A stretch of DNA of 64,000 bases from a virus: the IMG/VR virus record IMGVR_UViG_3300042890_005556; one strand, 5' to 3'. A program made the position numbers and the translations under genes. Position 1 is the first letter of the stretch. Every line of letters begins with the position of its first letter. Positions 7,925 to 64,000 of the stretch are shown here, piece by piece. Below the pieces are notes generated by a model, which searched no databases, had not been told where the DNA came from, and saw nothing but the letters and a program-made list of their open reading frames with translations.

Positions 7925-7955
7925 TTGGTTTGTCCCTTTTAATCGTCTAATTTAA

Positions 7956-7961
7956 TATTTA
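7956..7961 (-). promoter_or_regulatory. Candidate late promoter core TAAATA
   Basis: About 32 nt upstream of the 7924 start. Confidence 0.4.
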
Positions 7962-7966
7962 ATTCA

Positions 7967-9817: not shown

Positions 9818-9870
9818 AGTATTAATCCTTCGAGTTGATTCATTGTATTCTTCCATTGTATTTTATTTTC

Positions 9871-23183: not shown

Positions 23184-23248
23184 CCGGCTCTCCACCAAAC
23201 GGTAACTATAATTAGCGCCTATATTCTTTGCATACAAATGGGAATGAT

Positions 23249-30928: not shown

Positions 30929-30938
30929 GAATGACAAT

Positions 30939-31328
30939 ATGATACACGATCATCTAATGGAAGCAATCAGGCAAGATGCCGACCTATTGACTAAATCCGA
31001 TGCGTGGCTCGAAGAAGAGAAGAATTACTTCACAGAGCAGATGCGCAAATCCATAGAAGAGCTAAAACCCATCCTCTTAGCTATAGCTATAAAACAAAAA
31101 TTGCAGCAGCAGAACATGGTGCCTAGGCAGAAGTTCATAAGAGGCAGCACAGGCCAGATAGAGAATGTTGTGATTGACTTCTGTAAGCTACCAGAAGCAC
31201 TGAGAGATATGCTCAATAACGGCAGAGATACCTTAGATCAGTTGATAGCAGCTGGCAATATTGCCACATGGCAGATAGACGGGTATGACGTTAATACCTG
31301 CCTCCAAACGGCACCGAAAGGGATATAA
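30939..31328 (+). CDS. Hypothetical protein translationally coupled to purZ
   Basis: 129 aa; TAATG overlap with the purZ start. Confidence 0.7.
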   Translation: MIHDHLMEAIRQDADLLTKSDAWLEEEKNYFTEQMRKSIEELKPILLAIAIKQKLQQQNMVPRQKFIRGSTGQIENVVIDFCKLPEALRDMLNNGRDTLDQLIAAGNIATWQIDGYDVNTCLQTAPKGI

Positions 31329-32428: not shown

Positions 32429-33204
32429 TCAACCTATTCAAAGTCGCAATTTACACAGACGAAGCGGGGTCTACCCTCGCTTCGTCTAAGAGTATTATAT
32501 CAGAATTAAATATTCCAAATGTCATTTTTAGAAACGTAGACAATAGGAATATTCTAAAATATGACGAAACTCGAATAAAGGCTGTCCTCAAAGAGTTCGA
32601 GGATTTTACCGTAGCTGGTCTGTCGACAGATATCAGAATAGATGATATGTTGTCAGATGATCAGATTTTCGATTTACGGAAGAAGATTTACCTTATTAAA
32701 CCAGTATTTGTCAGATTCGGGTGGGCTGGAGAGAAATACTCTACGGAATTTATTGCTAGAATAATAGATATGAGTATAGAGAGCAATTTTATACCGGTTA
32801 TTGAGTATGAGCATACGCATTTTAATTCTCCAAAAATCATAAAGGCACAGGACTGGGTCAACCTTTTGTCATTATCGAAGCGATTGAGAGTGAATTTTGA
32901 TCCTGTTCAGTATCTTATGCGGGTAAGAACTGATCCTATAGAGACGGTTTATGTTCCGCTTAGGAATCAAGTGAGCGTGATCGATGTAAGAGATTATAAG
33001 ATTGGCGTTGGGGCTAAGACGATTGGTTACGGGTCTATTGATTGGGCTGCGTTGTTAAAGAGACTATATTCCGATAAATATAACGGTTGGTTGGCTATTA
33101 AGCCGTCTCTGGGTATCATGCATGGTGATACTCTTGGTAGAGAGATGGTTTTTTCCCATGCTTTCAGCAATTTCAAAGAAACATTGGAGGAAGCGTGTCA
33201 ATAA
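32425..33204 (+). CDS. Xylose-isomerase-like (AP endonuclease 2 family) TIM barrel, divergent
   Basis: AIYTDE, VIEYE, VNFDPVQY, IDVRD, IGYGSIDWAALLKRLYSDKYNGWLAIKP; several metal ligands appear replaced; ATGA overlap with purZ. Confidence 0.7.
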   Translation: MINLFKVAIYTDEAGSTLASSKSIISELNIPNVIFRNVDNRNILKYDETRIKAVLKEFEDFTVAGLSTDIRIDDMLSDDQIFDLRKKIYLIKPVFVRFGWAGEKYSTEFIARIIDMSIESNFIPVIEYEHTHFNSPKIIKAQDWVNLLSLSKRLRVNFDPVQYLMRVRTDPIETVYVPLRNQVSVIDVRDYKIGVGAKTIGYGSIDWAALLKRLYSDKYNGWLAIKPSLGIMHGDTLGREMVFSHAFSNFKETLEEACQ

Positions 33205-48240: not shown

Positions 48241-49944
<1,704 letters not shown>

Positions 49945-49959
49945 ATTAGGAGTAAGTCC

Positions 49960-50319
49960 ATGGCAGACAGTTGGATGTTAATCAGCTACGGTAATTTTGA
50001 GAAAACTAAAAAACTATTTAGCTATGACAGGTTTGGAATCCATACCCTGCCAATATTCGAAGATGCTATGATCGCCGACGAATTTATGAAAAATTTGTCT
50101 GAGCTATACCGCAAGGAAAAGAAGTTCACGCTGAACTACTGCGAAAGTAAGAAAAAACTCATCGATATCATAGACCTAATAACCATAGTGACATACGACC
50201 TAGACCAAATAATAATAGACCCATCTTCTGCGAACGAGAGTACGCCAGAAAGATTTTCCATCGGAGAGAAAGTCTATAAGATCCAAGACTTCAAAGAATT
50301 ACTTCTTCAAAAGTCTTAA
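49960..50319 (+). CDS. Hypothetical protein
   Basis: ATG 49960 after AGGAG; the ORF-track start at 49888 overlaps the opposite gene. Confidence 0.65.
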   Translation: MADSWMLISYGNFEKTKKLFSYDRFGIHTLPIFEDAMIADEFMKNLSELYRKEKKFTLNYCESKKKLIDIIDLITIVTYDLDQIIIDPSSANESTPERFSIGEKVYKIQDFKELLLQKS

Positions 50320-50333
50320 AATCATCAGAGCAC

Positions 50334-51281
50334 TCAAAATAAGACATCGTCCTTGGCTGCTGGCCACTTTCCGTTCGCTGTGGAAAAGAAATGGCTGTTT
50401 TCGAACCATCTAACTTTGATGGTTTGATAAAAAGATGTATAGGAAATGGCAAATCCGTTCTTGTGTTGGATAATTGACGGATACGAGCCATATGAGTCAA
50501 GCCCCGCAAAATGCAAGTAATTTTTAGAACCAGTGAAGACACCGACGGAAAGGTCTTTACGTCGTATCCCAGTGGTATTGTTGTAAACGTACAGAAGACA
50601 ATTCATATAATAAAGAACAGCAATGCTGCTATTATTATTAGGAATGCTTGTGTTGCTGGACACATTACCAGCATGTAGTTTACTGTACAGATTACTAGAT
50701 TTAAAATTTCGTGTTAAAGCGTTGATCTCACCATCATACCAAATAGCCGGCTGGATCTCGCAAGATCCAAAACGCTTGGATTCAGAGTAGTCAAAGCCAT
50801 TGCCAGTGTACAGAACACACTCTCCAGAAAACTCATCATACAGCGGCAAAATCGTCTTGCCGTCGTGCGTTATTGGTGAGCACCTGCCAAGAAGATGAAG
50901 CTGACTATCTGCAATTTTAACCGGTTCAGAGCATTTTAGAGAGTCAGTATCTTCTATCTTTCTGACGAATAGATCACAGAAAGCCCATTTCATAACAGGT
51001 CTGGTAATGAACGGATGGGCCACGAACTTAGAGTACAAGATATAACAATCACCTAGCGAATCTTTATACAATACTGGATTACCAGTACCATCTTCAAATT
51101 CGACGCTGGCTTTGTCGTTTGTTAAAATTACTCTTTGATTGTCTGAGCATTCATATTCACATGTATAGAAGGCGACTAGAAGTTTATCATCTATCGAAAG
51201 CAATGTTGAGCAATGATTAAATACTTCACAGCTGTATAAGCTTGTGGTTTCACCTAAAATATACTTTAGAGATTTTCTCAT
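50334..51281 (-). CDS. BNR/sialidase-like beta-propeller
   Basis: HCSTLL...LLVAFY..E, GNPVLY, ILPLYDE, IQPAI, IPNNNSSI, R..LSV, SYPSIIQ...ISYT follow the exo-alpha-sialidase (BNR_2) pattern. Confidence 0.7.
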   Translation of the reverse strand: MRKSLKYILGETTSLYSCEVFNHCSTLLSIDDKLLVAFYTCEYECSDNQRVILTNDKASVEFEDGTGNPVLYKDSLGDCYILYSKFVAHPFITRPVMKWAFCDLFVRKIEDTDSLKCSEPVKIADSQLHLLGRCSPITHDGKTILPLYDEFSGECVLYTGNGFDYSESKRFGSCEIQPAIWYDGEINALTRNFKSSNLYSKLHAGNVSSNTSIPNNNSSIAVLYYMNCLLYVYNNTTGIRRKDLSVGVFTGSKNYLHFAGLDSYGSYPSIIQHKNGFAISYTSFYQTIKVRWFENSHFFSTANGKWPAAKDDVLF

Positions 51282-51292
51282 AGGATTGAACC

Positions 51293-51685
51293 ATGGCTAT
51301 TGATGTCAAAGCTTTAAGCAGTTGGGTTAGGCAATTAAGGCATAGAGCCAAAAAGCACAATTTATATAACGATTTAACAATCCAAGAGATACAAACTGTC
51401 ATAATAGAATATAAGAATATGTGTTGTCTGTGTGAAAATGTTTCTGAAGTATTAGATATGGCGTACCCCCTACGTAATGGTGCTCCTAATGTCCAAGCGA
51501 ATGTCTTGCCACTGTGCAAACAATGTAAAAAGACTAAAGGTAATGATGATTTGACTGCAATGTACACTTCTGGTGTTATAGATAGGGATAAATTTTTAAC
51601 TATTATAAAGTCTTGTTTTGGTTTTAATCATGGCGATGTATTAAGGATACATGTGCGTACTTTGAGTGGTCATATTGACGATTGA
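51293..51685 (+). CDS. Degenerate HNH-fold zinc-finger protein
   Basis: CCLC...LDMAYPLRNGAPNVQANVLPLCKQCKKTKG; the usual DH..P His reads Met and the C..CN Asn reads Lys. Confidence 0.65.
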   Translation: MAIDVKALSSWVRQLRHRAKKHNLYNDLTIQEIQTVIIEYKNMCCLCENVSEVLDMAYPLRNGAPNVQANVLPLCKQCKKTKGNDDLTAMYTSGVIDRDKFLTIIKSCFGFNHGDVLRIHVRTLSGHIDD

Positions 51686-51720
51686 TTGGATCATTTGCCA
51701 TATAGTCAAGGAGGAAAACC

Positions 51721-52446
51721 ATGAGTAATACAGGTGGTCGTGCGATATACGGTGTGAATGATAATATCCGGATTTTAGAGCTAGATGGCTCTGTAAGTCG
51801 AGATGTATACGTTGTAGATCAAGACCGTTCCGATAGGAAGGGACATCTACGATTAATACATAAGAATTCCGGACTTGCAAAGAAAGTCCATCACCGAAGG
51901 ATTCTCACTAATTATGACGATGACATGGCGGTCGTGCTTGAGAATGGTAATAAATTCTATGCCTTGTGCCCGAAATGCGGCAAAACCGAAGAAATACTGC
52001 CAACACGAGATGACATAACATGCCCACAATGTGGACAGTTCTCATTGTACTGGTTGAGCACCAAGCCCGATTTGGGAGTCTACCAGACAAAAACCCTGAA
52101 CGAAAGAAAGCCGAAGAAAGAAATGGCTAAAAATAATAAAGTAGACATAACACAGTTACTGACATTAGAAGAATGTGAATTATGGTCGAAAACAGTAGCG
52201 TTCGATCATGAGAGAATAGACGCTAGAGCGTTCGTTCTCATTTACACGGCTGAGAATACAAGAAAGTACTGTTTTAACACCTATGATGGTATGCTTGGTA
52301 AAAAATCGAAACTATACATAGAGGAATTCATATCAAACGCCAGCATAGATGGTATTAGTCACGTGCCTTGGTTCAGTATTTCAGAAATTGAGGCAGTCAG
52401 AAAGAAGCTAGCGAAGTCTGGGTACGCCATACACAAGGAGGTATAG
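51721..52446 (+). CDS. Zinc-ribbon-containing hypothetical protein
   Basis: CPKCG...CPQCG; GAGGA RBS. Confidence 0.7.
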   Translation: MSNTGGRAIYGVNDNIRILELDGSVSRDVYVVDQDRSDRKGHLRLIHKNSGLAKKVHHRRILTNYDDDMAVVLENGNKFYALCPKCGKTEEILPTRDDITCPQCGQFSLYWLSTKPDLGVYQTKTLNERKPKKEMAKNNKVDITQLLTLEECELWSKTVAFDHERIDARAFVLIYTAENTRKYCFNTYDGMLGKKSKLYIEEFISNASIDGISHVPWFSISEIEAVRKKLAKSGYAIHKEV

Positions 52447-52632
52447 ATGTTAGTGCTTGCAAGAAAATTGAACCAGAAGATCATCATAGACGACCACACT
52501 GTAGTAACTATAGTGAAGATCGGGAAGGATTATGTTCGTCTCGGCATCGAGGCACCTGATCAAGTAAAAATATTCAGAGAAGAGATATATCCTTCTGAGG
52601 CAAATGATGGCGGAAAACCAAGCAGCGCATAA
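52447..52632 (+). CDS. csrA: Carbon storage regulator CsrA/RsmA RNA-binding protein
   Basis: MLVLARK...I.I......TIV.I....VRLGIEAP..V.IFREEI; AGGAGG RBS. Confidence 0.93.
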   Translation: MLVLARKLNQKIIIDDHTVVTIVKIGKDYVRLGIEAPDQVKIFREEIYPSEANDGGKPSSA

Positions 52633-52861
52633 CTTATATGTTTTGCGTAAAATGATAAGAGCACTGCAAGAACCGGCCAGAACTGCCATCTTTGAACAGA
52701 TAGAGCTAATGATTGATTCCATAGCAGACCAAGAACGAACATTCCACGCTAAAATATCGTCAGATATGCACGACATACAAGTTCTATTGTCTGCTATGCA
52801 ATTTGATCTAGAGTCCACTAAAAAAGAACGTGACAAATATAGAGCCATGCTAGGAGAATAA
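52604..52861 (+). CDS. Small coiled-coil protein (FDLE.T..ERD motif)
   Basis: GAGG RBS; C-terminal MQFDLESTKKERDKYR. Confidence 0.7.
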   Translation: MMAENQAAHNLYVLRKMIRALQEPARTAIFEQIELMIDSIADQERTFHAKISSDMHDIQVLLSAMQFDLESTKKERDKYRAMLGE

Positions 52862-52863
52862 TC

Positions 52864-53841
52864 ATGGATCTGCGTGATAAAAAAGTGCTGATTACAGGCG
52901 GAAAAGGTTTTTTAGGTACTCACGTTGCAGATGAAATAAAGCGACTTGGGTTACACATCGAAGACCTCGACCAAAACATTGTTAACGCAGCAAAACCAGG
53001 CACAGCGTATGTTTTTAAGTCAGAAACAGCAGACCTCACCAGCATCGAACAGACATACTGGCTATTTAAAAAAATAAGACCAGATGTAGTCATCCATCTG
53101 GCAGCTGCAGTCGGTGGCATCAAAGCAAATAGCAAAGCCCCAGGAACATTCTTCTACAAGAATATGACTATGGGTATGAATGTCATAGAGGCATGCAGAA
53201 TTTACAAAACAAGTAAACTGGCTATAATAGGAACAGTCTGCAGCTATCCCAAATGGACACCAACGCCGTTCAAAGAGATAGACCTATGGAATGGCTACCC
53301 AGAAGAAACGAACGCACCATACGGAATAGCCAAAAAAGCTCTATTCGTACAAGCAGACGCATATAAAAAAGAATACGGCATGGACTCAATATGTCTACTA
53401 CCCGTAAACCTGTATGGTCCCCACGACAACTTCGACCTAGAAACATCACACGTAATACCAGCACTCATCAAAAAAATGTATGATGCTAAAAAATATGACA
53501 TGCCGAAAATGGAATGCTGGGGTTCAGGATCAGCATCAAGAGAATTCCTCTATGTTAAAGATGCCGCAGCAGCCATTGTGAAAGCAGTGACATTCTACAA
53601 TAAAACCGAGCCAGTCAACATAGGGACAGGACAAGAAATCACCATTGCTGACCTAGCGAACAAAATAAAAGAATATACTCGCTATAGAGGCGAGATAGTA
53701 TGGAGAAATGACGACATAGATGGACAAAAAAGACGCTGCCTCGACACCACCAAAGCCGCCGAAGAGTTCGGTTTTACTGCCAGAACAACCCTCGACGAAG
53801 GACTCAAAGAAACCATTAAATGGTATGACCAAAACAATTAA
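52864..53841 (+). CDS. fcl: GDP-L-fucose synthase
   Basis: TGGKGFLG, VIHLAAAVGGIKAN, GTVCSYPK, LWNGYPEETNAPYGIAKK, PVNLYGPHDNFDLETSHVIPALIKK, WGSG...REFLYV. Confidence 0.95.
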   Translation: MDLRDKKVLITGGKGFLGTHVADEIKRLGLHIEDLDQNIVNAAKPGTAYVFKSETADLTSIEQTYWLFKKIRPDVVIHLAAAVGGIKANSKAPGTFFYKNMTMGMNVIEACRIYKTSKLAIIGTVCSYPKWTPTPFKEIDLWNGYPEETNAPYGIAKKALFVQADAYKKEYGMDSICLLPVNLYGPHDNFDLETSHVIPALIKKMYDAKKYDMPKMECWGSGSASREFLYVKDAAAAIVKAVTFYNKTEPVNIGTGQEITIADLANKIKEYTRYRGEIVWRNDDIDGQKRRCLDTTKAAEEFGFTARTTLDEGLKETIKWYDQNN

Positions 53842-54250
53842 CATAGAGATAAGCCCAGGCGAGCTAATCGACAGATACTCAATCGTGCTAATCAAACGAG
53901 AAATGATTTGGGACGAGGATAAGCAAAATAGCATCCAAATAGAATTAACCAGATTAAAAACAACATTTGAAGCACTTAACATATCAGACCGCGACATTCA
54001 CCTTATAAACCTGTATAAGGTGAACAGAGCCATATGGGACAAAGAAGAAGACATAAGAGAGATACACAGAAACTCAGCCATAGAATCCATATGGTGGTCG
54101 AATAAAAATAAGCGAATAAGAGCTGGAGAGATAGGTATAGCAATAGCCATACTTAATGACCAAAGGTGTTCCATAAAACGAGAGATTAACCGAAGTTGCG
54201 GATACGCAGTCTTAGAAGAAAAAAGCCACATGACGACGGAAAACGAATGA
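53825..54250 (+). CDS. DUF6165-like protein
   Basis: IEISPGELIDRYSIVLIK, LYKVNRAIWDKEEDIR, NDQR..IKREIN, EEKS; ATG at 53825. Confidence 0.75.
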   Translation: MTKTINIEISPGELIDRYSIVLIKREMIWDEDKQNSIQIELTRLKTTFEALNISDRDIHLINLYKVNRAIWDKEEDIREIHRNSAIESIWWSNKNKRIRAGEIGIAIAILNDQRCSIKREINRSCGYAVLEEKSHMTTENE

Positions 54251-54477
54251 CACAAGACTTCAAACAAACAGTAAACAGCGGGCAACCGTTTAAACTTAAA
54301 ACAATCCATATGACAACAATGTCGATATACTACCTAAAATATGACGGAACAGACTATACGCTAGAGAGCGAAAATGACAAATTAAGCGTAGAACGTATTA
54401 AATTCATATCAGACGAAAACGTCTCATTACACCTGAGTAACGGCAGAGAAGATACCTTCATCATAATAGGGGCTTGA
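54247..54477 (+). CDS. Hypothetical protein
   Basis: ATGA overlap with the upstream stop; fills the gap to thyX. Confidence 0.6.
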   Translation: MTQDFKQTVNSGQPFKLKTIHMTTMSIYYLKYDGTDYTLESENDKLSVERIKFISDENVSLHLSNGREDTFIIIGA

Positions 54478-54478
54478 A

Positions 54479-55288
54479 ATGGGCAAACTGGTACAGCCAA
54501 AAGTCTACCACGTTGGGTACACAGAAGTAGACACAGATACCATACTAGAATATCTTAAAGATAGCGGGAATCTAGACTTCTATGAAAGCATCAAAGAAGC
54601 CAAAGCGATTGGAATAAGTAACGCAGAAGTACTTTGCAGCCTCTACGCTAAACTCTGTTATAAGAGCCTTACATTAGGGCAAAACCAAAACATAACAAGA
54701 GTGAGAGACATCAAAGACAACCTCATAGGTTGTTTTCATACAGGTCACGGAAGCATATTCGAGCATATTAACTTTAATTTTATAATCACAGATTGTAGCA
54801 GAATATTCACACACGAATTGATAAGACATAGGCCAGGTATGGCTTATTCACAAAATAGCGGGCGATATATTAGAATAGACGAAATTGATATAGTATTTGA
54901 TCCAATCTTAGAGCCAGTAAAAGACGACGTAGAAGAAATAATCGAATATCTAGAACACAAGTACAGAATAATGGAGCAAAAGCTAGACTTGAATAATATC
55001 AAGGACTTTGCTACTAAAAAAGAAATGACATCCGCATTACGAAGACTTGCACCAAATGGTCAATCTAACGAAATAGGGGTTACAGCAAACCTCAGATCCC
55101 TCCGCCATATTATCATGCTTAGGACCAGCAGGCATGCTGAATGGGAGATAAGAGTAATATTCGAACAGATCTATAACATAATGAAGAGCAAATACCCGTT
55201 GATGTTTGCTGACGCGAAAGAAGAGATCGTTAAGGGAATCATAGAAGTCACCGGAATGAGGATGCAGCCTTATGAAAATAGTATTTGA
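54479..55288 (+). CDS. thyX: FAD-dependent thymidylate synthase
   Basis: GHGSIFEH, SRIFTHELIRHR...SQNSGRY, N.RSL.H..MLR...AEWEIR. Confidence 0.95.
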   Translation: MGKLVQPKVYHVGYTEVDTDTILEYLKDSGNLDFYESIKEAKAIGISNAEVLCSLYAKLCYKSLTLGQNQNITRVRDIKDNLIGCFHTGHGSIFEHINFNFIITDCSRIFTHELIRHRPGMAYSQNSGRYIRIDEIDIVFDPILEPVKDDVEEIIEYLEHKYRIMEQKLDLNNIKDFATKKEMTSALRRLAPNGQSNEIGVTANLRSLRHIIMLRTSRHAEWEIRVIFEQIYNIMKSKYPLMFADAKEEIVKGIIEVTGMRMQPYENSI

Positions 55289-55820
55289 ACGCCTACCAAG
55301 AAACAACAACCCAATACCGAGCTACGCGACGCAAGGGAGCGCAGCTTTTGATCTAAGCACATGCCTTAGAAGATCCTGCAGACAATTTCTGGCAGGAAGG
55401 GGTACTATCAATTTCAGATGTACTACAGACGGCGGAAGGCGTGATAGCGATGAAGAAGGCAACTTAAGAGAGATAGGAAATTGTGATATCCCGGTGTTAA
55501 GGATTAACCCAGGTGAAATAATTCTAATACCGACTGGATTCAAGACCTCTTTCGTAAACGCCGTATTGAAGATATTTGTGAGATCTTCAATCAGCTTGGA
55601 TGGTCTTCAGCTAGCCAATAATGTCGGTATCATAGATTCAGACTATAGGGGTGAATTGTTCTTAGCATTTAAGAATACCAGTGATAAAGTGAAAAACATA
55701 TCTGATAACTACAGGATGGCACAAGGTATTCTTGAACCGCTTGAACAGTGCATCATAGAAGAAGGTACCGTCGACATTACTGTCAGAGGTGCTGGTGGGT
55801 TTGGTTCCACTAACGAATAA
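55272..55820 (+). CDS. dut: Trimeric dUTPase
   Basis: GSAAFDL, RSS, GIIDSDYRGE, RMAQG, RGAGGFGST (motifs 1-5). Confidence 0.93.
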   Translation: MKIVFERLPRNNNPIPSYATQGSAAFDLSTCLRRSCRQFLAGRGTINFRCTTDGGRRDSDEEGNLREIGNCDIPVLRINPGEIILIPTGFKTSFVNAVLKIFVRSSISLDGLQLANNVGIIDSDYRGELFLAFKNTSDKVKNISDNYRMAQGILEPLEQCIIEEGTVDITVRGAGGFGSTNE

Positions 55821-55828
55821 AAATTCCG

Positions 55829-55859
55829 AGCGCAAACAGCCAGAAAGCTTGTTTGCGCT
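55829..55859. terminator. Stem-loop after dut
   Basis: 10-bp agcgcaaaca/tgtttgcgct inverted repeat; no strong U-tract. Confidence 0.45.
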
Positions 55860-55951
55860 AATTACGATTCAATGAACGCCCATCTTGATTAAGACTAAAT
55901 ATACAATGTCTAGGATAACTCACTACGTTATTTTAAGATTGATAAACCATT

Positions 55952-56290
55952 ATGGACAGTAAAATAATCGAACTCAAAAAATGTCTAAACCACGCTATAG
56001 GACATATTGAACATAATTTTTACAACTTCGCTATAGATGGCCTGAAAGACGCTTTGCTAAAAATCGACGCTCTACAAGAAAAAAGAGAGCGTAACGTTAT
56101 TTCAGAAGAATACTATACGGCAATAATGGCAATTATAACAGAAAAATATGGATCAGACGGTCTCGAAGCTTTTTGCCTTGGTACATTCCTGATATCTAAG
56201 GGACGGGGAGGTAAGCATGACTTATCAAGCGAAATAAAAAAGCTGCTCTGTTCGCAACCAGAAGATGAAAACACAAACACAGGACACTAA
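55952..56290 (+). CDS. Hypothetical protein
   Basis: 112-aa ORF overlapping the phoH start. Confidence 0.6.
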   Translation: MDSKIIELKKCLNHAIGHIEHNFYNFAIDGLKDALLKIDALQEKRERNVISEEYYTAIMAIITEKYGSDGLEAFCLGTFLISKGRGGKHDLSSEIKKLLCSQPEDENTNTGH

Positions 56291-56993
56291 CGTGGCAAGA
56301 AAAAGAAGCGTAAAGCCAACAGCCAGAGTAGCAAGATCAACCCGGACACAGCAACAGCCAAAACCAATATTTAAAACAGTTAAACCAAAAACAGTAGGTC
56401 AAGCAGCATATTTTAAAGCATTAAAAGAGAGCGTAGTAACGTTCGGTGTAGGCCCAGCAGGCTCAGGAAAAACATATCTAGCAGTTGCACAAGCAGCTGA
56501 ATCGCTATTCAAAGGCGAAACCAAGAAGATAATACTGGTAAGACCAGCCGTAGAAGCTGGCGAGCATTTAGGATTCCTGCCAGGCGACATGGCAGAAAAA
56601 ATCAACCCATATCTTAGACCACTGTTAGACGCTTTAAACGATATTATAGATCCCAAAGTGATCCAAGAGATGATGGCGTCAGATATAATAGAAATTGCAC
56701 CGCTCGCTTTCATGCGTGGTAGAACATTAAACGATGCGACTATCATACTTGATGAGGCACAAAACGCAACCAAAGAACAGATCAAAATGTTCCTAACTAG
56801 AATTGGCCAAAATTCTAGGGTTATCGTGACGGGAGACCCGACCCAAAATGATCTCCCATTCGATAAGCAGAGCGGATTAATAGACGCTATGCAAAGGACA
56901 TCGCACATCAAAGGCATAAGCATAATTAAACTCGAAAAGACAGATATTGTCCGGCATCCAATAGTCCAAGAAATCGTCGAAGCCTACTACTGA
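56265..56993 (+). CDS. phoH: PhoH-family ATPase
   Basis: GPAGSGKTYLA, RPAVEAGEHLGFLPG, PLAFMRGRTL, LDEAQN, TGDPTQND, IVRHP. Confidence 0.95.
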   Translation: MKTQTQDTNVARKRSVKPTARVARSTRTQQQPKPIFKTVKPKTVGQAAYFKALKESVVTFGVGPAGSGKTYLAVAQAAESLFKGETKKIILVRPAVEAGEHLGFLPGDMAEKINPYLRPLLDALNDIIDPKVIQEMMASDIIEIAPLAFMRGRTLNDATIILDEAQNATKEQIKMFLTRIGQNSRVIVTGDPTQNDLPFDKQSGLIDAMQRTSHIKGISIIKLEKTDIVRHPIVQEIVEAYY

Positions 56994-57769
56994 TGCTAAC
57001 GATATGCTCATTCGAAGCAAACAGTTACCAATTATGGCAAGTAGAGCTACTCTATAAAACATTCATGCTTAACCAAAGCGGAAATTTTATGGGAGTAGCT
57101 CATAACGACGGAAACGACATACAAGCACACTGCTTCCCAATATACTGGACAAAAAACAACTACAAGTATTTCAACCAGGATAATTATTCACCATATAATA
57201 AAATAGCAGGCATCAAAGAATTTCTTCTGGATGTTCCAGGCCCACCAAATGAAACAATAATGTTAATAGACCCAGACTGCATAATACTGAAAGACATAAA
57301 CATATTACTAAGACCAAGAACGTTATTAACAAATTATTATTCATACATGCATATTAATGACACCATAAAAAACCATATAGATGGCATATCAGACGTAGAA
57401 GATTTTCCAGCTGTTGGAATACCATATATCATGAGAAGAATAGATTTACTAACAATAATCGACAGATGGTTTGAATTATGTGTGAAAATACGAGAAAGGT
57501 CAAAGGACTGGATAGTAGAAATGTGGGCGTTCAGCATAGCAATACAGGAATCAGAAATGAAAGTGATAACGGAAGACTATGTAGGTTTTTCAAATTCAGA
57601 TAGCAATCCGCCGCATATAATTCACTATTGCAATGAGATACAGAACTTAGATGACAAAGACATATGGTCAAAAAGATATTTCGTAAGAGGTGGGTATCCA
57701 GATCCAAAAGAAGCTAAAACCCACTGTGGGAGAATAATGCTAGAGACCTTACACCTATTAATGAAATGA
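56993..57769 (+). CDS. GT-A glycosyltransferase resembling plant peptidyl-Ser galactosyl / hydroxyproline arabinosyl transferases (GT96/GT95-like)
   Basis: YQLWQVELLYKTF, DNYSPYNK..GIKEFL, LIDPDCI (DxD), GIPYIM...DL..I...W, WIVEMWAFSIA, IIHYC. Confidence 0.7.
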   Translation: MLTICSFEANSYQLWQVELLYKTFMLNQSGNFMGVAHNDGNDIQAHCFPIYWTKNNYKYFNQDNYSPYNKIAGIKEFLLDVPGPPNETIMLIDPDCIILKDINILLRPRTLLTNYYSYMHINDTIKNHIDGISDVEDFPAVGIPYIMRRIDLLTIIDRWFELCVKIRERSKDWIVEMWAFSIAIQESEMKVITEDYVGFSNSDSNPPHIIHYCNEIQNLDDKDIWSKRYFVRGGYPDPKEAKTHCGRIMLETLHLLMK

Positions 57770-58183
57770 TCAAGGCTTGTGCCAATTACCATTCTCATCC
57801 ATATAACCAGACTTGCTCCAATATAGATGACCGAACAGGAGCCCAAAGCCAAAAGGAAACCAAGTGTGGCTCATACTAAATTGCCATAAAAAATAGCCGA
57901 TAAAACTATGAGAGAAAACCATCGCAGAGACAGTCTGAATAATGATTAATAATACTAATACCTCAAATACTATCTTCACAAATGGTGTGAGCCTATTCTT
58001 ATCAAGGTAGAAATGGCCCATAACAGTCCCAAGCAGTGCTGGCAATAGCGGGACTCTCGCAGATTGCTCCCAGATGTACAAGCTTACAGTCTGTCCATTC
58101 ACGAGATAGACGTATAAGTCATATATTCCCAATAAGGATATGAAAGCGATCACCACGAACGGTGTAAAATTTTGATATTTCAT
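57770..58183 (-). CDS. Membrane protein with internal duplication
   Basis: Two copies of TPFV...W..S...P...G...GH(F/L)Y; about four hydrophobic segments. Confidence 0.7.
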   Translation of the reverse strand: MKYQNFTPFVVIAFISLLGIYDLYVYLVNGQTVSLYIWEQSARVPLLPALLGTVMGHFYLDKNRLTPFVKIVFEVLVLLIIIQTVSAMVFSHSFIGYFLWQFSMSHTWFPFGFGLLFGHLYWSKSGYMDENGNWHKP

Positions 58184-58215
58184 ATAATATCATCCTGTTC
58201 GGTTGCATTAGGGAA

Positions 58216-59481
58216 TTAGAAGGCATACCCGTTATCAGTTATGATCTGGACCGCTACGGGGCTTATCAGCTTGTGCTTGCCGTACGGCGACCCATTTCTT
58301 GACCTTACATACTCTTTGGTATTAAGGCCAAGTGTCTCCATAATGCCTATAAATTCTTTATTCTTTAACCTTAACATCATAGCCGCCTCAGTTAAGGTAT
58401 ACCAAACATTGTAGCCACGCGATGGTGCCTCACGTTCTACTGTATGCTTGGGTGTTTCATATGATTTAAATCCTTCGACAAGTAATTTAGCTGCATTTTC
58501 TTCGAAATACTTTACTGTTCCAATTTGGATATATTGGACGTTCTGGTATTGAGATATCAAACCACGCAGTGTGGTAGTCTTGATATCCAGTCTTCCAGCC
58601 AGAGTGGCTACCGTATAGTAACCATCTGGAGGGCCTGATTCTTTAGATTCTAAAAAAGTCTCTATAAAATCTTCACTGATGTATGAGGAGATCCGGCTGC
58701 TTGATAATTTCACACAAATTGATTCATCGTCTTTAATCTCTCTAGCTGCAATAATCTGATGTACGCGTTGTCTGGAAACGCATAACCGCAACGCCGATTC
58801 TGCAGCACTGATGAAACCCACACTACGCATATAATCATCCAGAATCTGCTTGTGTCGTATCGACTTTGGCACATGCGGCACGCCATCAATGTGCTTAACA
58901 TCTGTGCGAAGTCCAATAAATTGCATAAAATCTGGGGTAATAAACTTATCATCTAAAAAATCAGATATTGGCTGTAATTTTAAAACCTTCTTATAGCTCT
59001 TTTTATCGCGAGCTACTTCATGGTATTTTTCTAGTATCTCATTTGCTAGCTCTGGAGAAAACATGACTCTATAAAATCGTCGTTTTTTGCTACCTATTTT
59101 TAGAGCACGGTCATAGAAACCGTATTTGTAGATGAATGCGTATAATGTAGGGCTAACGATGTCTAGCTTTTTACAGAGCTGTGAAGCACTCAAGAAGTCA
59201 TTAGGGATGACGTAATTAGACGATTTAAGTCGATCCATGCCTTCCTGGCTTATAAAGATCTTGCGTCTTTTGCTGTTTGGAGCGTACTGTTGCCTGGTGT
59301 ATAGAGCGTCTGGCAGCTTTATTACATTATTGAGAACTGTGCTTATGGTACAGGATAGTATCTTAGCAGCTTGTTTTAACGTATAATAATCAGTTGGGGC
59401 TTCATACTCTGCGTTTTCATTTTTCATTTTGATTGTCGAGAATATCTGACTGTATTTGTTTAGGATCATTCTGCTCTTCAT
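58216..59481 (-). CDS. DNA-binding protein with about five excisionase/MerR-type HTH repeats
   Basis: YYTLKQAAKIL, FLSASQLCKKL, FISAAESALRLCVSRQRV, YYTVATLAGRL, WYTLTEAAMML. Confidence 0.75.
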   Translation of the reverse strand: MKSRMILNKYSQIFSTIKMKNENAEYEAPTDYYTLKQAAKILSCTISTVLNNVIKLPDALYTRQQYAPNSKRRKIFISQEGMDRLKSSNYVIPNDFLSASQLCKKLDIVSPTLYAFIYKYGFYDRALKIGSKKRRFYRVMFSPELANEILEKYHEVARDKKSYKKVLKLQPISDFLDDKFITPDFMQFIGLRTDVKHIDGVPHVPKSIRHKQILDDYMRSVGFISAAESALRLCVSRQRVHQIIAAREIKDDESICVKLSSSRISSYISEDFIETFLESKESGPPDGYYTVATLAGRLDIKTTTLRGLISQYQNVQYIQIGTVKYFEENAAKLLVEGFKSYETPKHTVEREAPSRGYNVWYTLTEAAMMLRLKNKEFIGIMETLGLNTKEYVRSRNGSPYGKHKLISPVAVQIITDNGYAF

Positions 59482-59662
59482 AAGTACCCTCTGTTATATT
59501 CGCGGCTATAGTATCTGGATCGCCTGAGGTATTGTGGCATATTTCGCCATTGTTCTCAATATACGGACAATGCCTGCACCCGCAGGCACAGCAATATCCT
59601 CTGCTGATCAAATACTCACTAGTGAATACTCGGTACCCATTTTCATAATAAAAATCAGTCAT
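59417..59662 (-). CDS. DUF5522-like Cys-rich protein
   Basis: DFYYENG..VFT..YL..RGYCC.CGCRHCPY. Confidence 0.75.
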   Translation of the reverse strand: MTDFYYENGYRVFTSEYLISRGYCCACGCRHCPYIENNGEICHNTSGDPDTIAANITEGTYEEQNDPKQIQSDILDNQNEK

Positions 59663-60170
59663 TATAAGCACCGCTCATTACATTGTCCAAATGCAACGCA
59701 TAGACCAAGTCAACAAGACCTGGAGGCAGATCAGACACGTCAAAAGACGATAGACTTTTATATCCTTTTGTTGGGGGTATAACTGTATAAGCGTTTCGAA
59801 TGTTTATGAATATACCGAGCTGATCATTTAGACACTTCAGCCTTAACTGATCATAAGGCAGGTCATCAAATCTATTCGGATAGTTGAAGAGCAGATGCTC
59901 TGAATTCTTCCCTTTGTAATAGACTGTGTTAAGATCATAAATTTTAATAATATTTCTTAATTGATTCATGCCAGCTTTTGTCACAGCCCGCATCTCAATT
60001 AAGCTCTTGCCTATAGGCAAGGCTAGTTTGCTATCATCAAATATTTCGCCATTATTACTATAGTAATAATGTTTCTTATCATTTATAATAAGCGGCGAGT
60101 AGCCAGCAGCTTTGGTAGTCTCAGCAGCCTCTTTGAGGCTTTTGGAGGTAATCGCATCAATTAAACTCAT
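59655..60170 (-). CDS. Hypothetical protein with weak similarity to the bifunctional primase-polymerase N-domain
   Basis: HLLFNYP, GIFINIRNAYTVIPPT..Y...LPPGL recall prim-pol C-terminal motifs but no DxD was seen. Start at 60170 or TTG 60179 after GGAGG. Confidence 0.5.
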   Translation of the reverse strand: MSLIDAITSKSLKEAAETTKAAGYSPLIINDKKHYYYSNNGEIFDDSKLALPIGKSLIEMRAVTKAGMNQLRNIIKIYDLNTVYYKGKNSEHLLFNYPNRFDDLPYDQLRLKCLNDQLGIFINIRNAYTVIPPTKGYKSLSSFDVSDLPPGLVDLVYALHLDNVMSGAYND

Positions 60171-60250
60171 TTTGTTCAAACTCCCTCCACATAAAAATTT
60201 TACCAACATTGAAAGCTTATAATAGTATATTATTAGCAAGTAGATACAAT

Positions 60251-60472
60251 ATGAGCCAAAATGATCTCCCGAAAATAAGGATGAATAGCCTATGCAATAT
60301 CAAGAAGCATCTAACCGAATACCATAAACTACTTTTAGACATCGAAAAAGATAAAGCAATCCAGAAAAAGCTCAAAACAAATGATGGATTTGAACTTCTA
60401 GAGATCACACATCTTATAGAACTCATAACACAAATAGAGGAGAAAAATAATGCGAATAATGTGGTTTTCTAA
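60251..60472 (+). CDS. Hypothetical protein
   Basis: ATG 60251; overlaps the next gene start. Confidence 0.55.
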   Translation: MSQNDLPKIRMNSLCNIKKHLTEYHKLLLDIEKDKAIQKKLKTNDGFELLEITHLIELITQIEEKNNANNVVF

Positions 60473-61562
60473 CGCACCCTGGCTTAATACCGGCTATGGC
60501 AGACAAACGAGGTTTATGATCCAACGCCTGAAACAAGCGGGCCATGAAATCGCGTGTCTAGCATACTCTGGCCTAGAGAATGGATCATTATATCATGAAG
60601 GGATACTTTGCCTACCTAGAAAACATTATTTGTATGGCCAAGATTCTATAGCTGAGCATTGTGTCAACTGGGGAGCAGAGGTCTTAATATCCCTAACAGA
60701 CGTCTGGGCTATGAACCCAGAGACATTTAAAGATCACGTCAAATGGATACCATGGTATCCAGTAGACCACGACCCAATGCCAAACCCGGTAAAAGAGAAA
60801 TTATCCATCGCCACAAAAAGAATAGCGATGTCTGAATACGGGAGAGCTAAAACTCAAGAAGCCGGTTTAGATTGTGATTTTATACCACACGGAATAGACA
60901 CCACCATTTATAGACCAAAAGACAAGACAGAAGCAAGGAAAACTCTAGGATTACCAAACGATTCGTTTATTGTTGGGACTGTGGCGATGAATAAGGGAAA
61001 TCCGAGTCGTAAAAACATAGTCGAGCTCCTGACGGCTTTTAGGGATTTTAACAGATTATATAAAGACTCGATATATGTTCTGCATACTAATCTAACCGGC
61101 CCAGCAGATGACTCTATTAATATACCAGATCTAGTAAATTTCTTAGGACTAGAGATGGGTAAAAATGTGTATGCTTGCAATCAATATTATAATTCAATCG
61201 GAATACCAGACGGCTATATGGCAGATTTTTATAACGCAATGGATGTGCATTTGCTAGTGTCAATGGGTGAAGGTTTTGGTATTCCGATAATAGAGGCGCA
61301 AGCTTGTGAGTGCCCTGTGATCGTTGGGGATTGGACAGCCATGAGCGAACTTTGCCACGCCGGAAGAAAAATCAGCAAAGACGACGCACAAGAATGGTAC
61401 ACCCCGCTAGGGTCTTACCAATATAAGCCAAATACCGGCGCAATTACTAAGGCAATGTGCCTAGAATACGAATCGCCAACGAAAACCGATGGTGTACACG
61501 ACGTGATAGATAGTCTATTCAATATAGACAAGGTAGCGGCTTCTTTTATAAATGCATTGTGA
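60450..61562 (+). CDS. GT4 family glycosyltransferase
   Basis: SNAPW..TGYG.QT, IPHGIDT..Y.P, N...RKN, FYNAMDV....S.GEGFGIPIIEAQAC..PVI. Confidence 0.9.
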   Translation: MRIMWFSNAPWLNTGYGRQTRFMIQRLKQAGHEIACLAYSGLENGSLYHEGILCLPRKHYLYGQDSIAEHCVNWGAEVLISLTDVWAMNPETFKDHVKWIPWYPVDHDPMPNPVKEKLSIATKRIAMSEYGRAKTQEAGLDCDFIPHGIDTTIYRPKDKTEARKTLGLPNDSFIVGTVAMNKGNPSRKNIVELLTAFRDFNRLYKDSIYVLHTNLTGPADDSINIPDLVNFLGLEMGKNVYACNQYYNSIGIPDGYMADFYNAMDVHLLVSMGEGFGIPIIEAQACECPVIVGDWTAMSELCHAGRKISKDDAQEWYTPLGSYQYKPNTGAITKAMCLEYESPTKTDGVHDVIDSLFNIDKVAASFINAL

Positions 61563-61568
61563 TAAATA
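61563..61568 (+). promoter_or_regulatory. Candidate late promoter core TAAATA
   Basis: About 20 nt upstream of ATG 61589 with GGAGG between. Confidence 0.4.
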
Positions 61569-61588
61569 TAGGTAAAGGGGAGGCTAAG

Positions 61589-62050
61589 ATGGCATACTTA
61601 ACGTTCAAGCCTGCTGGTACAGACGGCACACAGATTGCCGCATATTTCACTGTAAGATTCACTATCGCCCCTCAAGGTGATAAATTTAGAATGACCGCTG
61701 GTTATAGACTCCAGAACCAGCTGTACACTGTAGTGACAGATTCTGACACTATTGAAGCTGCAAAAGCATCAGCTGAAAAAGTAGTCATGGCTTCTTTTAG
61801 TTTAAAGCCTAAACCAGATGTTCCAGACAACAGTAATAGTGTAAGACAGGCAGCTATCTTGAGATGGACTGAAGCACAAAGGATATACGTCAGTTTAACG
61901 ACTAGCCTTGTGCGAGTGCCTAAGCCAGAGCTTGATGATTTCATCAAGGACCCAAATTACGTCTGGCCTTACATGAATACAGCACCTGATGGCGGGAACG
62001 CCCGGCCAGGTGGTGGTGGCGGCACAATTATTCCTCCGAGACCGATATGA
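61589..62050 (+). CDS. Hypothetical protein
   Basis: ATG 61589 after GGGGAGG; Gly/Pro-rich C-terminus. Confidence 0.7.
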   Translation: MAYLTFKPAGTDGTQIAAYFTVRFTIAPQGDKFRMTAGYRLQNQLYTVVTDSDTIEAAKASAEKVVMASFSLKPKPDVPDNSNSVRQAAILRWTEAQRIYVSLTTSLVRVPKPELDDFIKDPNYVWPYMNTAPDGGNARPGGGGGTIIPPRPI

Positions 62051-62544
62051 TTAAATTCTATGGTGATGTAATCCCAAAAGATATGTTGTATCATATCAAC
62101 TCTGAGATGATCAGAGCAGAAAGATACAACATTTTAAATTATGAAGCAGACACGGATAGCAGATATGGCGCATCTCTAGGCGTTGGCAATCTGCCAGAAT
62201 CAGATCGAGCATTCGAAATACTGACACCGCTAATAGAGAGAGACTACGGCCCAGTAACAAGAGAAAACTCGTATTCTCGAATATACTATAATGGAGGAAA
62301 GCTCCACAGACATATAGATCGTGAAAGTCTACATATAACATTATCATTATGCACATATTCAGACATTGATTTTGAATGGCCCCTGATGGTGGAGGAGGGT
62401 GAACAGCTACATGCCGTGGTGACACCGCCTGGATCCGCCGCTGCGATACTAGGTACAGAATATTATCACTATCGTCCTAATTTAATCTGCAAAAATGGCC
62501 AGAAAGTAATACAAGTTTTTTACCACTGGAAATTTAATGAATAA
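62047..62544 (+). CDS. 2OG-Fe(II) dioxygenase-like protein
   Basis: YSRIY..G..LHRHIDR (HxD), distal HYR, QVFYHW; a family common in aquatic phages. Confidence 0.8.
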   Translation: MIKFYGDVIPKDMLYHINSEMIRAERYNILNYEADTDSRYGASLGVGNLPESDRAFEILTPLIERDYGPVTRENSYSRIYYNGGKLHRHIDRESLHITLSLCTYSDIDFEWPLMVEEGEQLHAVVTPPGSAAAILGTEYYHYRPNLICKNGQKVIQVFYHWKFNE

Positions 62545-62812
62545 AGAGCCTGATGCAATAATACTTTTAGACGCTGGTAGAACGCTAGCAGCTGCATTAG
62601 AGTGCAAATGCGAAGAATGCCTAGATCTAATGTTAACGGTTGATATAGAATTCATAAAAGTCAGCACTAGATACGCACAGCTAGCCAAAAGAAATCCTGG
62701 TTTAATGTTTAAAATCTTGGTAGAAGAATGGGACAAAGACAGGATATTAGAGGAATTACCAATGCTCTATATGAAAAAAGAACCATCAACAGGCAAAGAA
62801 TTCTCGAAATGA
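62537..62812 (+). CDS. Hypothetical protein
   Basis: 91 aa; overlaps neighbours at both ends. Confidence 0.5.
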   Translation: MNKEPDAIILLDAGRTLAAALECKCEECLDLMLTVDIEFIKVSTRYAQLAKRNPGLMFKILVEEWDKDRILEELPMLYMKKEPSTGKEFSK

Positions 62813-63483
62813 ATTAAATCGACAGTTTTACCCGGTAACCATTTTTTAAACACATACGCCTTAGAAGGTTCCCCAAGAAAAGCTGCCCACCATGCAAACG
62901 TGCTGTTCGAACATATAATTCTATCGAAACTAGAAATAAAGAAAAAATCGCTCTTAACATCTTCCGAGACTATAATAGCATCAAAGTCTCGGAAATAGTC
63001 CAAATAGTCTTGTTCTAGCGGAGACATGACAATATACAGCTTGTCGAATGACTCCTGTCGTAATATATCAATATACCAGCTAGGGTGAATTCTATGGCCA
63101 AGCCCATAATCATCGCACCGCACATGCATCACTATATCTTTAGTATTCTTCTCTAGCTTAGGTAATTCGAAGAATGATTTTATTCTATCTCTGTGCTGAT
63201 TATACCGCTTTGATTGCTGGAAATATCCTGCAAAAAACACAGCACCATCGAGCTTTAAATTAAATAGGCTGTCTACATTTCTATCATCAATACATCTCAT
63301 CGGATCTTGCACGCATGTGCCAGATTGGGGTTCTGTCGCTTTAATTATATCGTCATGGTTCCATGCAGTCATTAGCTGAAGACCATGGTCTTCAGCATAC
63401 ATTCTACCTAGGGCATACTGAAACAGGTTGTTGCCAAATCTCCCGAGGAATCCAATATGCACGCCCATTTTTTGTCCCATCAA
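62767..63483 (-). CDS. GT11 alpha-1,2-fucosyltransferase
   Basis: GRFGNNLFQYA, GYFQ, MHVRCDDY, ICSNSTFAWWAAFL. Confidence 0.9.
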   Translation of the reverse strand: MMGQKMGVHIGFLGRFGNNLFQYALGRMYAEDHGLQLMTAWNHDDIIKATEPQSGTCVQDPMRCIDDRNVDSLFNLKLDGAVFFAGYFQQSKRYNQHRDRIKSFFELPKLEKNTKDIVMHVRCDDYGLGHRIHPSWYIDILRQESFDKLYIVMSPLEQDYLDYFRDFDAIIVSEDVKSDFFFISSFDRIICSNSTFAWWAAFLGEPSKAYVFKKWLPGKTVDLIHFENSLPVDGSFFI

Positions 63484-64000
63484 GTCAGCTTTATAGACAC
63501 GTTTTCTGGTATTATTCCAATATCCACCAAATCATCTTTAATTACCTGCATCGCTGATTCAGGTGTCTCTGATGTTATTAGACAATACCTCGTGAGCAGT
63601 GCTTTAAAAGCAGCTAGTATTAGCTCGTCTGATTCGACGGTTACATGTCTCTCAAGAGCTTTTTCAGTTAAGACTTTTGAGACAGATTCAACGATACCAC
63701 TAGGGCTATCTTGCCAAAGCACATCTGTCCCTATCTCGTCCATCAATGATTTTAATCTTGAATGTGCCTCTTTGCGTTTTTCTGAATTACCCGTATTAAA
63801 ATCTTTTGGGAGCTTTAACGTGGATGCTTCCAGAAGTTTCTCAAGCAATAAGCCTTCGAATTCTTTCACAGCTGCGACGATTGTGGCGTATTCGGGCTGT
63901 ATCGTTTTGATACTGCTAGTCCATCCTGGTTTAACAGTGACGATATAAGTGCCTTCATCATAAGCAGAAAAAACCATCTCTTCAGCAATAGGTACGTATC
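63480..64000 (-). CDS. Hypothetical protein (frame open to the right edge; possibly 5'-truncated)
   Basis: No in-frame stop between ATG 63977 and position 64000; ATGA-type overlap with the GT11 gene. Confidence 0.6.
   Translation of the reverse strand, partial: YVPIAEEMVFSAYDEGTYIVTVKPGWTSSIKTIQPEYATIVAAVKEFEGLLLEKLLEASTLKLPKDFNTGNSEKRKEAHSRLKSLMDEIGTDVLWQDSPSGIVESVSKVLTEKALERHVTVESDELILAAFKALLTRYCLITSETPESAMQVIKDDLVDIGIIPENVSIKLT

Follow-up and report, generated by a model that had tools for sequence, protein, structure and literature searches.

A phage member of the hydroxyproline O-arabinosyltransferase family and a nearby prolyl-hydroxylase-like oxygenase: a possible route to protein glycosylation

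Introduction

Hydroxyproline (Hyp) O-glycosylation is, to our knowledge, so far known only from eukaryotes and is regarded as a speciality of plants and algae. Whether a virus of bacteria might also carry it out is the question raised by IMG/VR virus record IMGVR_UViG_3300042890_005556, of which 64 kb (64,000 nucleotides, G+C approximately 40%; hereafter the window) was analysed. The window encodes a glycosyltransferase (GT) related to the hydroxyproline O-arabinosyltransferases (HPATs) of plants and, further along the same strand, a small Fe(II)/2-oxoglutarate (2OG) oxygenase. In PMC8012813, the hydroxyl on which the HPAT family acts is described as one that prolyl 4-hydroxylase (P4H) has introduced into a peptide. 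The best single reading of the two phage genes, which is put forward tentatively, is that a phage protein rich in proline is hydroxylated and glycosylated in a coupled manner.

The window encodes the phage-type genes SbcCD, ATP-dependent ligase, PhoH, ThyX, dUTPase and a PurZ-type synthetase, and it was regarded as phage DNA because PHROG families for SbcCD, ligase, PhoH, ThyX and the PurZ-type protein are present. A comparison with 50,697 deposited phage records found no close relative of the window. Positions 49451-64000 of the window are matched at 96.35% identity by a metagenome locus, L006, which extends 3.7 kb past the window end; as a near-identical copy, it supplies no independent gene context.

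A soluble member of the HPAT family

The transferase gene is the following feature.

56993..57769, + strand: HPAT-like (PF23452, GT95-type) glycosyltransferase of 258 amino acids, identified by a Pfam match and conserved motifs

The similarity to GT95 that had been proposed from the sequence alone was borne out, as the open reading frame (ORF) matched Pfam PF23452, the 'Hydroxyproline O-arabinosyltransferase family', well above the cut-off (E 2.2e-12; 47.4 bits against 23.9). Residues 4-193 were aligned with profile positions 4-214 of 307, and the HPAT family was the only one returned by Pfam. Zero matches were obtained in PHROGs and NCBIfam, and a PDB sequence search with the transferase returned no relative. 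The four motifs that the sequence-only reading had likened to those of plant SGT1/HPAT enzymes (Y..WQ, Y...NK, DxD and W..EM) are all present, as YQLWQ at residues 12-16, YSPYNK at 65-70, DPD at 93-95 and WIVEM at 173-177. In an alignment of 45 family sequences D95, M177 and H211 are invariant, and Y12, W15, Q16, Y65, N69, D93 and W173 are conserved at 90% or more. Because of this conservation the four motifs are regarded as signatures of the family and not as chance occurrences. The protein has no N-terminal extension and begins at position 4 of the profile, whereas the eukaryotic relative P0116 has approximately 130 more N-terminal residues. Judged by its sequence, the ORF product is soluble and belongs to the HPAT (GT95-type) family, with its DxD-type motif intact.

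The plant and green-algal enzymes HPAT1-3 (GT95) belong to the same Pfam family. The phage protein and P0116 (444 bits to PF23452) have in common the Y..WQ and W..EM motifs, an acidic-x-D motif and the HY/KR motifs, but they are only 20% identical, and the phage DPD and Y...NK stand where P0116 has E-x-D and Y...SR. Plant HPATs are described in PMC8012813 as type II Golgi membrane proteins, whereas the phage transferase lacks an N-terminal anchor. The fold of GT95 has been predicted in one study to be GT-A-like, and that of GT96 to be novel (PMC8476585).

Four close homologues of the transferase were retrieved by a word-indexed search (98, 79, 54 and 50% identity), all four of them with PF23452. 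When 1.84 billion representatives were searched exhaustively with a profile, 310 proteins were found at E≤1e-3, of which 86 reached 1e-10 and three 1e-30. Some of the relatives are eukaryotic, from a Coleochaete record and from a cluster that contains a Micromonas member. A search of IMG/VR found no relative of the phage transferase; the relative P0011 is encoded on a 119.7-kb IMG/VR viral contig (locus L014). The best 150 of the 310 profile matches were scanned against Pfam at E≤1e-5, and PF23452 was present in 126 of them (63/70 and 63/80). The additional domains in these 150 proteins were as follows.

PqqD: 3 proteins (P0036, P0084 and P0096)
PF13640, P4H-type 2OG oxygenase: 2 proteins (P0034 and P0096)
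PF11397, 'GlcNAc' transferase: 7 proteins
PF10250, O-FucT: 7 proteins
Radical SAM: 1 protein
ShK: 2 proteins
FkbM methyltransferase, GT18 and nucleotidyltransferase: 1 protein each

PqqD is a peptide-docking element in pathways for ribosomally synthesised and post-translationally modified peptides.

A quick unrooted IQ-TREE phylogeny was built from 94 rows, namely the window protein, four phage-clade relatives, 61 single-domain matches and 28 excised domains; its rows exclude the remaining listed relatives, which are mostly fragments and multi-stretch matches. A phage clade of five was obtained (SH-aLRT 99), sister (91) to a group of eight rows that includes P0011. The three known eukaryotic rows fell in a separate group of 12 rows, and the phage transferase did not group with the eukaryotic HPATs. 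On the strength of this tree position, and of P0011 being on a viral contig, the gene is placed in a branch of viral and bacterial family members and is not regarded as a recent acquisition from plants. The description 'plant-type' given by the sequence-only reading is loose: in this quick tree the protein falls in a clade of phage and virus sequences, separate from the eukaryotic HPATs, and it has no membrane anchor.

A small oxygenase with a prolyl-hydroxylase-like fold

The oxygenase gene is the following feature.

62047..62544, + strand: small Fe(II)/2OG oxygenase of 165 amino acids with the fold type of prolyl hydroxylase domain (PHD)/P4H enzymes, identified by its iron triad and an AlphaFold model

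A 2OG oxygenase had been noticed approximately 4 kb from the transferase, and this was confirmed. The gene lies 4,277 bases away, its product carries an HxD...H triad, and prolyl hydroxylases are among the best structural matches of its model. No match to the protein was found in Pfam or NCBIfam, and no Pfam 2OG model (PF13640 or similar) was hit even at E≤1. It does match phrog_2954, a family labelled 'ferrochelatase' (E 4.3e-17). By tblastn, the oxygenase family was detected in 64 phage records, all at less than 60% identity. These were from 55 Synechococcus phages, seven entries named 'Cyanophage', one Pelagibacter phage and one marine virus, in which the annotations read 'ferrochelatase', 'hypothetical' or '2OG-Fe(II) oxygenase'. 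A profile search found at least 2,744 relatives, and a Pfam domain was present in none of the best 120.

Fourteen residues are invariant in an alignment of 71 family sequences (R78, Y80, L86, H89, D91, R92, W111, G129, G136, H141, R143, Q156, F158 and H160). The His-x-Asp...His iron triad formed by H89, D91 and H141 was also invariant in a set of eight sequences with cyanophage homologues. Comparison of the family with canonical cyanophage 2OG proteins by hhalign gave a weak relationship (probability 0.5, E 0.11), with HxD aligned to HxD. A PDB sequence search returned only chance matches to ribosomal L21 (E>0.6).

An AlphaFold2 model built from the 71-sequence alignment had a pLDDT of 92.0 and a pTM of 0.88; an earlier model from three sequences was unusable (pLDDT 40.4). 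The model has the double-stranded beta-helix fold of the Fe(II)/2OG superfamily. Its best match in the PDB, as found by Foldseek, was the Pseudomonas putida prolyl 4-hydroxylase 4iw3_A (E 6.8e-9, TMq 0.77), followed by PolD, Dictyostelium PHD, ALKBH5, PiuC, PHD2 and the PBCV-1 collagen P4H. In a viral structure library, the matches were cyanophage proteins named ferrochelatase, prolyl 4-hydroxylase domain protein or 2OG oxygenase. This model places the ORF product among Fe(II)/2OG-type oxygenases with a PHD/P4H structure, and its triad is intact. No ferrochelatase is among the structural matches listed, which are all oxygenases, and the 'ferrochelatase' label of the phrog_2954 family, as judged from the model, is probably wrong. 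With respect to the idea of DNA-base modification, no TET/JBP entry is among the listed matches, which are prolyl hydroxylases, AlkB-type proteins and small-molecule enzymes.

Fusion proteins link the two families

A hidden Markov model (HMM) built locally from the 71-sequence oxygenase alignment was matched by the C-terminal parts of two long transferase relatives, P0034 (1,190 amino acids; residues 1060-1187, 56.7 bits) and P0169 (1,173 amino acids; residues 1017-1170, 71.7 bits), and also by P0162-P0165, the cluster mates of P0034. The same HMM failed on the canonical PF13640 domains of P0034 and P0169 (-3.4 bits) and on that of P0096; since these canonical domains are not scored, the match is regarded as family-specific. 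Compared with P0169 by BLASTP, the window oxygenase showed 32% identity over residues 78-160 (E 5e-8). The Pfam domains of P0169 are HPAT (4-221), PF11397 (341-572) and PF13640 (874-979), and P0034 is organised likewise. By their sequences, P0034 and P0169 each combine, in one predicted chain, an HPAT-like transferase, a PF11397 transferase, a P4H-type domain and a C-terminal oxygenase of the window type. PF11397 is the family to which the Skp1 GlcNAc transferase, acting on hydroxyproline, belongs. Fusions of this type are the only direct link between the oxygenase and transferase families.

A second arrangement was observed in Synechococcus phage S-SCSM2R (L001:2764-6249), where an oxygenase domain of the window type and a canonical PF13640 domain are united in a 427-amino-acid protein. 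Three transferases come next, among them one of GT25, a family that includes the collagen hydroxylysine galactosyltransferases. A complex prediction for the transferase and oxygenase of the window gave a score of 0.00 and a mark of 0.32, and counts neither way.

A candidate acceptor

The window was also inspected for a protein that might be modified, and one feature was retained.

48241..49944, - strand: repeat protein of 567 amino acids with an ASPTAP-type hexapeptide repeat and a run of 25 Gln, identified from its translation and repeat counts

Approximately 75 residues of this protein consist solely of P, A, S, T and G (DNA positions 49295-49541). The ASPTAP repeat pointed out from the sequence alone is real, with three exact copies and an 18-base unit repeated 14.1 times at 49295-49532. 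A composition scan in all frames identified this as the sole real ORF with at least 15 P, S or T in 24 residues, so that it is the only candidate acceptor of such composition in the window. Plant P4Hs hydroxylate the proline of AP, SP and TP dipeptides, which would make the ASPTAP-type repeat a plausible acceptor. The protein was assigned to no family and no phage homologue was found. Its 25 consecutive Gln, which are unusual for a phage protein, are encoded by a TGCTGT unit repeated 11.8 times at 48755-48825.

No poly-threonine acceptor was found, as no ORF of the window has six or more Thr in 12 residues. Collagen-like segments, also mentioned in the sequence-only reading, do occur but are minimal in extent, with a single run of six G-X-Y triplets in one ORF (10743-13589).

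Gene order and the sugar-gene island

Both genes are part of a sugar-gene island that occupies 52.8-63.5 kb of the window and continues past the window end. Its other features are listed here.

52864..53841, + strand: NAD-dependent sugar-nucleotide epimerase/reductase, GDP-L-fucose-synthase-like (PF01370, E 3.4e-53; NCBIfam GDP-L-fucose synthase at 265.5 bits, not reaching the cut-off of 500)
56265..56993, + strand: PhoH-like ATPase, coupled to the HPAT-like gene (PF02562, E 3.5e-89; TGATG overlap)
60450..61562, + strand: GT4-type (GT-B) glycosyltransferase of 370 amino acids (PF13692/PF00534; phrog_2170, E 5.2e-37)
61559..62050, + strand: ORF of 163 amino acids (ORF163) with a Gly/Pro-rich C-terminus, overlapping the GT4 gene and the oxygenase gene by 4 bases each
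62537..62812, + strand: ORF of 91 amino acids (ORF91) with an 8-base overlap with the oxygenase stop; chance-level Pfam match only (E 0.056)
62767..63483, - strand: GT11-like (fucosyltransferase-type) glycosyltransferase of 238 amino acids, convergent on the oxygenase run (phrog_2644, E 1e-12; PF01531 at 18.6 bits, under the cut-off of 23.9)

The transferase is the last gene of a plus-strand run opened by the fucose-synthase-like gene, and its start codon overlaps the phoH stop codon as TGATG, an arrangement of translational coupling. The oxygenase belongs to the run GT4, ORF163, oxygenase, ORF91, with overlaps of 4, 4 and 8 bases. No match to ORF163 was obtained in Pfam, PHROG or NCBIfam, or by tblastn in phages. 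In the L006 copy, the region past the window end (L006:14837-18172) encodes a sulfotransferase (PF13469, E 3.2e-27) and gave a weak match to a PIG-L-like deacetylase.

In Microcystis phage Mae-JY09 a homologue of the GT4 protein (41% identity) is encoded one small gene downstream of the major capsid gene, and in Pontimonas phage phiPsal1 the homologue (32% identity) follows the capsid gene immediately. Homologues are also present in archaeal rod-shaped viruses (rudiviruses). The positions of these homologues suggest a capsid-glycosylating family.

Elsewhere in the window, the 621-amino-acid protein encoded at 23228-25093 resembles GT41/HMW1C-type protein N-glucosyltransferases (PF13844, E 4e-6; NCBIfam NGT, E 3.1e-23 but far under the cut-off), and from its sequence it resembles a second transferase family of a protein-modifying kind in the same phage.

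Gene context of the transferase relatives

Eight bacterial-type family members were used as the query in a genome scan, which identified seven bacterial loci: three in Gemmatimonadota, two in Planctomycetota (one of them in Kolteria novifilia), one in Rhodothermales and one in Thermomicrobiales. Together with viral L014 they make up eight independent loci. A gene for DUF6065 (PF19541) was detected next to the transferase by Pfam in L007 and by tblastn in L008, L011 and L012 (59-67% identity), and viral L014 has it too. The neighbour regions are as follows.

L007, 8883-10797: DUF6065 neighbour region
L008, 9094-10861: DUF6065 neighbour region
L012, 8878-10660: DUF6065 neighbour region
L011, 628-1332: DUF6065 neighbour region
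L014, 4479-5312: DUF6065 neighbour region

In the three Gemmatimonadota loci, the product of the gene after DUF6065 carries a PqqD domain, a stretch of more than 20 prolines interspersed with Ser, and a C-terminal part rich in Cys. This poly-proline PqqD protein is encoded two genes from the transferase in three of the seven bacterial loci. From its gene content, the DUF6065 and PqqD/poly-proline neighbourhood looks like an undescribed peptide-modification cluster. For DUF6065, a PDB sequence search gave no match, an Atlas search returned DUF6065 clusters only, and no publication was found in the literature. No DUF6065 homologue is present in the window. The notion that DUF6065 is a hidden hydroxylase was rejected, as the family has one invariant His only and its profile link to the oxygenase family reached a probability of just 0.2. 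In a further bacterial locus, L010, the transferase homologue is set among GT4, GT2 and GINT1-like genes.

Discussion

Coupled hydroxylation and glycosylation would proceed in the following way. The oxygenase would hydroxylate a side chain, most likely of proline, within a disordered segment rich in Pro, Ala, Ser and Thr in one of the phage proteins; the ASPTAP-type repeat of ORF 48241-49944 is the best acceptor candidate in the window. The HPAT-like enzyme would next add the first sugar, from a nucleotide sugar, to the new hydroxyl, and the glycan might be extended by the GT4 and GT11-like enzymes with the help of the fucose-synthase-like gene. An elaboration of this scheme is that the phage makes a glycoprotein resembling extensins or arabinogalactan proteins, with Hyp formed in the (A/S/T)-P repeat in the bacterial cytoplasm, a glycan started by the HPAT-like enzyme, extended with fucose by the GT4 and GT11-like enzymes and possibly sulfated by the sulfotransferase encoded past the window; this fuller version is considered quite improbable. 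The coupled route as such draws support from the PF23452 membership of the transferase, from the peptide-related context of that family (fusions to PqqD, PF13640, PF11397 and O-FucT domains, and poly-proline PqqD proteins close to bacterial homologues), from the invariant triad and confident model of the oxygenase, and from a virion-protein context, namely the GT4 homologues near capsid genes and the GT41/NGT-like protein at 23228-25093.

The connection between oxygenase and transferase, already called speculative in the sequence-only reading, fared unevenly. The two families are fused in P0034 and P0169, but several observations weigh against a joint function in the phage. The genes are in separate operons, with three opposite-strand genes between the transferase end and the oxygenase start, and the oxygenase is translationally coupled into the GT4 run and not to the HPAT-like gene. 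The fusions are rare (one of the best 150 representatives, plus five of 29 cluster members), and the tree places them and the phage clade in opposite halves. Within 8-10 kb of the transferase, none of the eight independent loci encodes the window-type oxygenase family, nor did any match a small HMM of six canonical cyanophage 2OG proteins; DUF6065 adjoins the transferase in five of the eight. Among the loci examined, the oxygenase family stands beside an HPAT-like gene only in the window and its near-copy L006. In the phage collection in which the oxygenase family is common (64 records), neither the phage transferase nor the viral P0011 gave a match, and an HPAT-like HMM found nothing in 120 oxygenase-family proteins or in seven phage loci. 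The fold, as modelled, does not fix the substrate of the oxygenase: in the structural comparison SnoN, PiuC and a putative oxygenase came within 1 Z of the prolyl hydroxylases. The basic 2OG-binding residue (Arg or Lys, approximately 9-12 positions after the second His) is not conserved in the family, whose invariant basic residues are instead R78, R92 and R143. Lastly, the repeat gene has no known role and lies approximately 7 kb upstream of the transferase.

An alternative is that the window holds two separate protein-modifying modules. The HPAT-like enzyme would then glycosylate Ser or Thr of a protein of the phage or its host directly, without prior hydroxylation, and the oxygenase would work with its GT4 partner or alone, as it must in cyanophages. 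The operon structure fits this explanation, with the transferase coupled to phoH and the oxygenase overlapping ORF163 after GT4, and so does the abundance of the oxygenase family in phages where neither the transferase nor P0011 gave a match. The nearest transferase relatives are paired with DUF6065 and not with a 2OG oxygenase, and none of the three transferases that follow the oxygenase homologue of S-SCSM2R is HPAT-like. SGT1/SERGT1 (GT96), reported to be a relative of GT95, acts on the Ser of Ser-Hyp4 according to PMC8012813, so a related family glycosylates Ser directly, which would suit a direct Ser/Thr acceptor. Against two modules stand the P0034/P0169 fusions, which unite both families in one protein, and the composition of the window, which lacks both Thr runs and virion proteins rich in Ser and whose sole P/S/T-rich segment is proline-rich. 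Separate modules are a serious alternative, judged only somewhat less probable than the coupled route.

A non-protein acceptor is also conceivable. In that case the HPAT-like enzyme would be one of several island transferases that build or alter a glycan, a lipid-linked sugar, a nucleic-acid base or a small molecule, for example in remodelling of the host surface during infection. The fucose-synthase-like, GT4 and GT11-like genes of the island are in line with such a role, as are the sulfotransferase and the weak PIG-L-like deacetylase match just past it in L006, the setting of the L010 homologue among sugar-transfer genes, and a literature search that found no characterised bacterial or phage member of PF23452. 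However, the sole characterised members use peptide hydroxyls (PMC8012813); the family is fused to peptide-binding PqqD and P4H-type domains, and poly-proline PqqD proteins are encoded near the bacterial homologues. A non-protein acceptor is rated as unlikely. That the transferase similarity is functionally meaningless, and the gene a decaying or inactive passenger, is very improbable: the reading frame is intact, it is conserved at 98% to 50% identity in four homologues with all family-invariant residues kept, and it is translationally coupled to phoH.

Coupled hydroxylation and glycosylation remains the preferred reading, though at less than even odds. The closest known systems are the plant pathway of P4H and HPAT (GT95) and the Skp1 pathway in the cytoplasm of protists. 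In the Skp1 pathway of Dictyostelium and Toxoplasma, the prolyl hydroxylase PhyA acts first and the GlcNAc transferase Gnt1 follows. The phage case differs from both routes in having a soluble transferase of a separate clade, an oxygenase that has no Pfam model and genes that are dispersed. In contrast to the Skp1 pathway, neither a PF11397 gene nor a canonical PF13640 gene was found in the window, and the acceptor would be a repeat and not a single proline. The plant donor UDP-L-arabinofuranose requires a GT75 mutase (PMC8012813), and none was seen in the window. The phage oxygenase is only 8-14% identical to PPHD of P. putida (4iw3, 4j25), human PHD2 and the PBCV-1 collagen P4H (5c5t), and differs from them in having no Pfam 2OG match. 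Phage virion glycosylation by capsid-adjacent transferases resembles the present case in that GT4 homologues follow capsid genes, but the transferase family there is a different one, no hydroxylase is involved, and the window genes do not lie in a structural module.

No publication on PF23452 was found, and no mention of a bacterial or phage HPAT was found in a literature search of titles and abstract openings, where the combination of GT95 and phage gave irrelevant results only. HPATs are termed 'plant-specific' in one abstract. If true, the extensin-like version would mean hydroxyproline O-glycosylation at work in a virus of bacteria. The soluble phage/bacterial HPAT branch (310 representatives, some of them fused to peptide-docking and prolyl-hydroxylase domains) would indicate an undescribed protein-modification route in prokaryotes and viruses. 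A lead to function is also gained for a large orphan family of marine and freshwater phages (at least 2,744 members), labelled 'ferrochelatase' and 2OG oxygenases by fold. In practical terms, such enzymes could serve as tools for the production of Hyp-glycopeptides in bacteria.

Other features of the window

The region 28890-29831 gave weak matches to PF01973 (MptE-like; E 3.4e-5, under the cut-off) and to the Kdo transferase WaaZ, and from these matches it may be another sugar-handling gene. The region 29841-33204 encodes the PurZ-type synthetase (phrog_1211, E 3.8e-61) with a nucleoside deoxyribosyltransferase-like neighbour. NucS is also encoded in the window. Promoter-like sites were uninformative, with 36 counted against 36.3 expected from shuffling. 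A single ORF of 4,599 amino acids, with no Pfam match, extends over 33875-47674. The regions 5723-9856 and 15069-16508 encode two adjacent RCC1-repeat proteins, one of them with cadherin domains, and an actin-like protein that matches Pfam 'Volactin' (E 3.1e-37).

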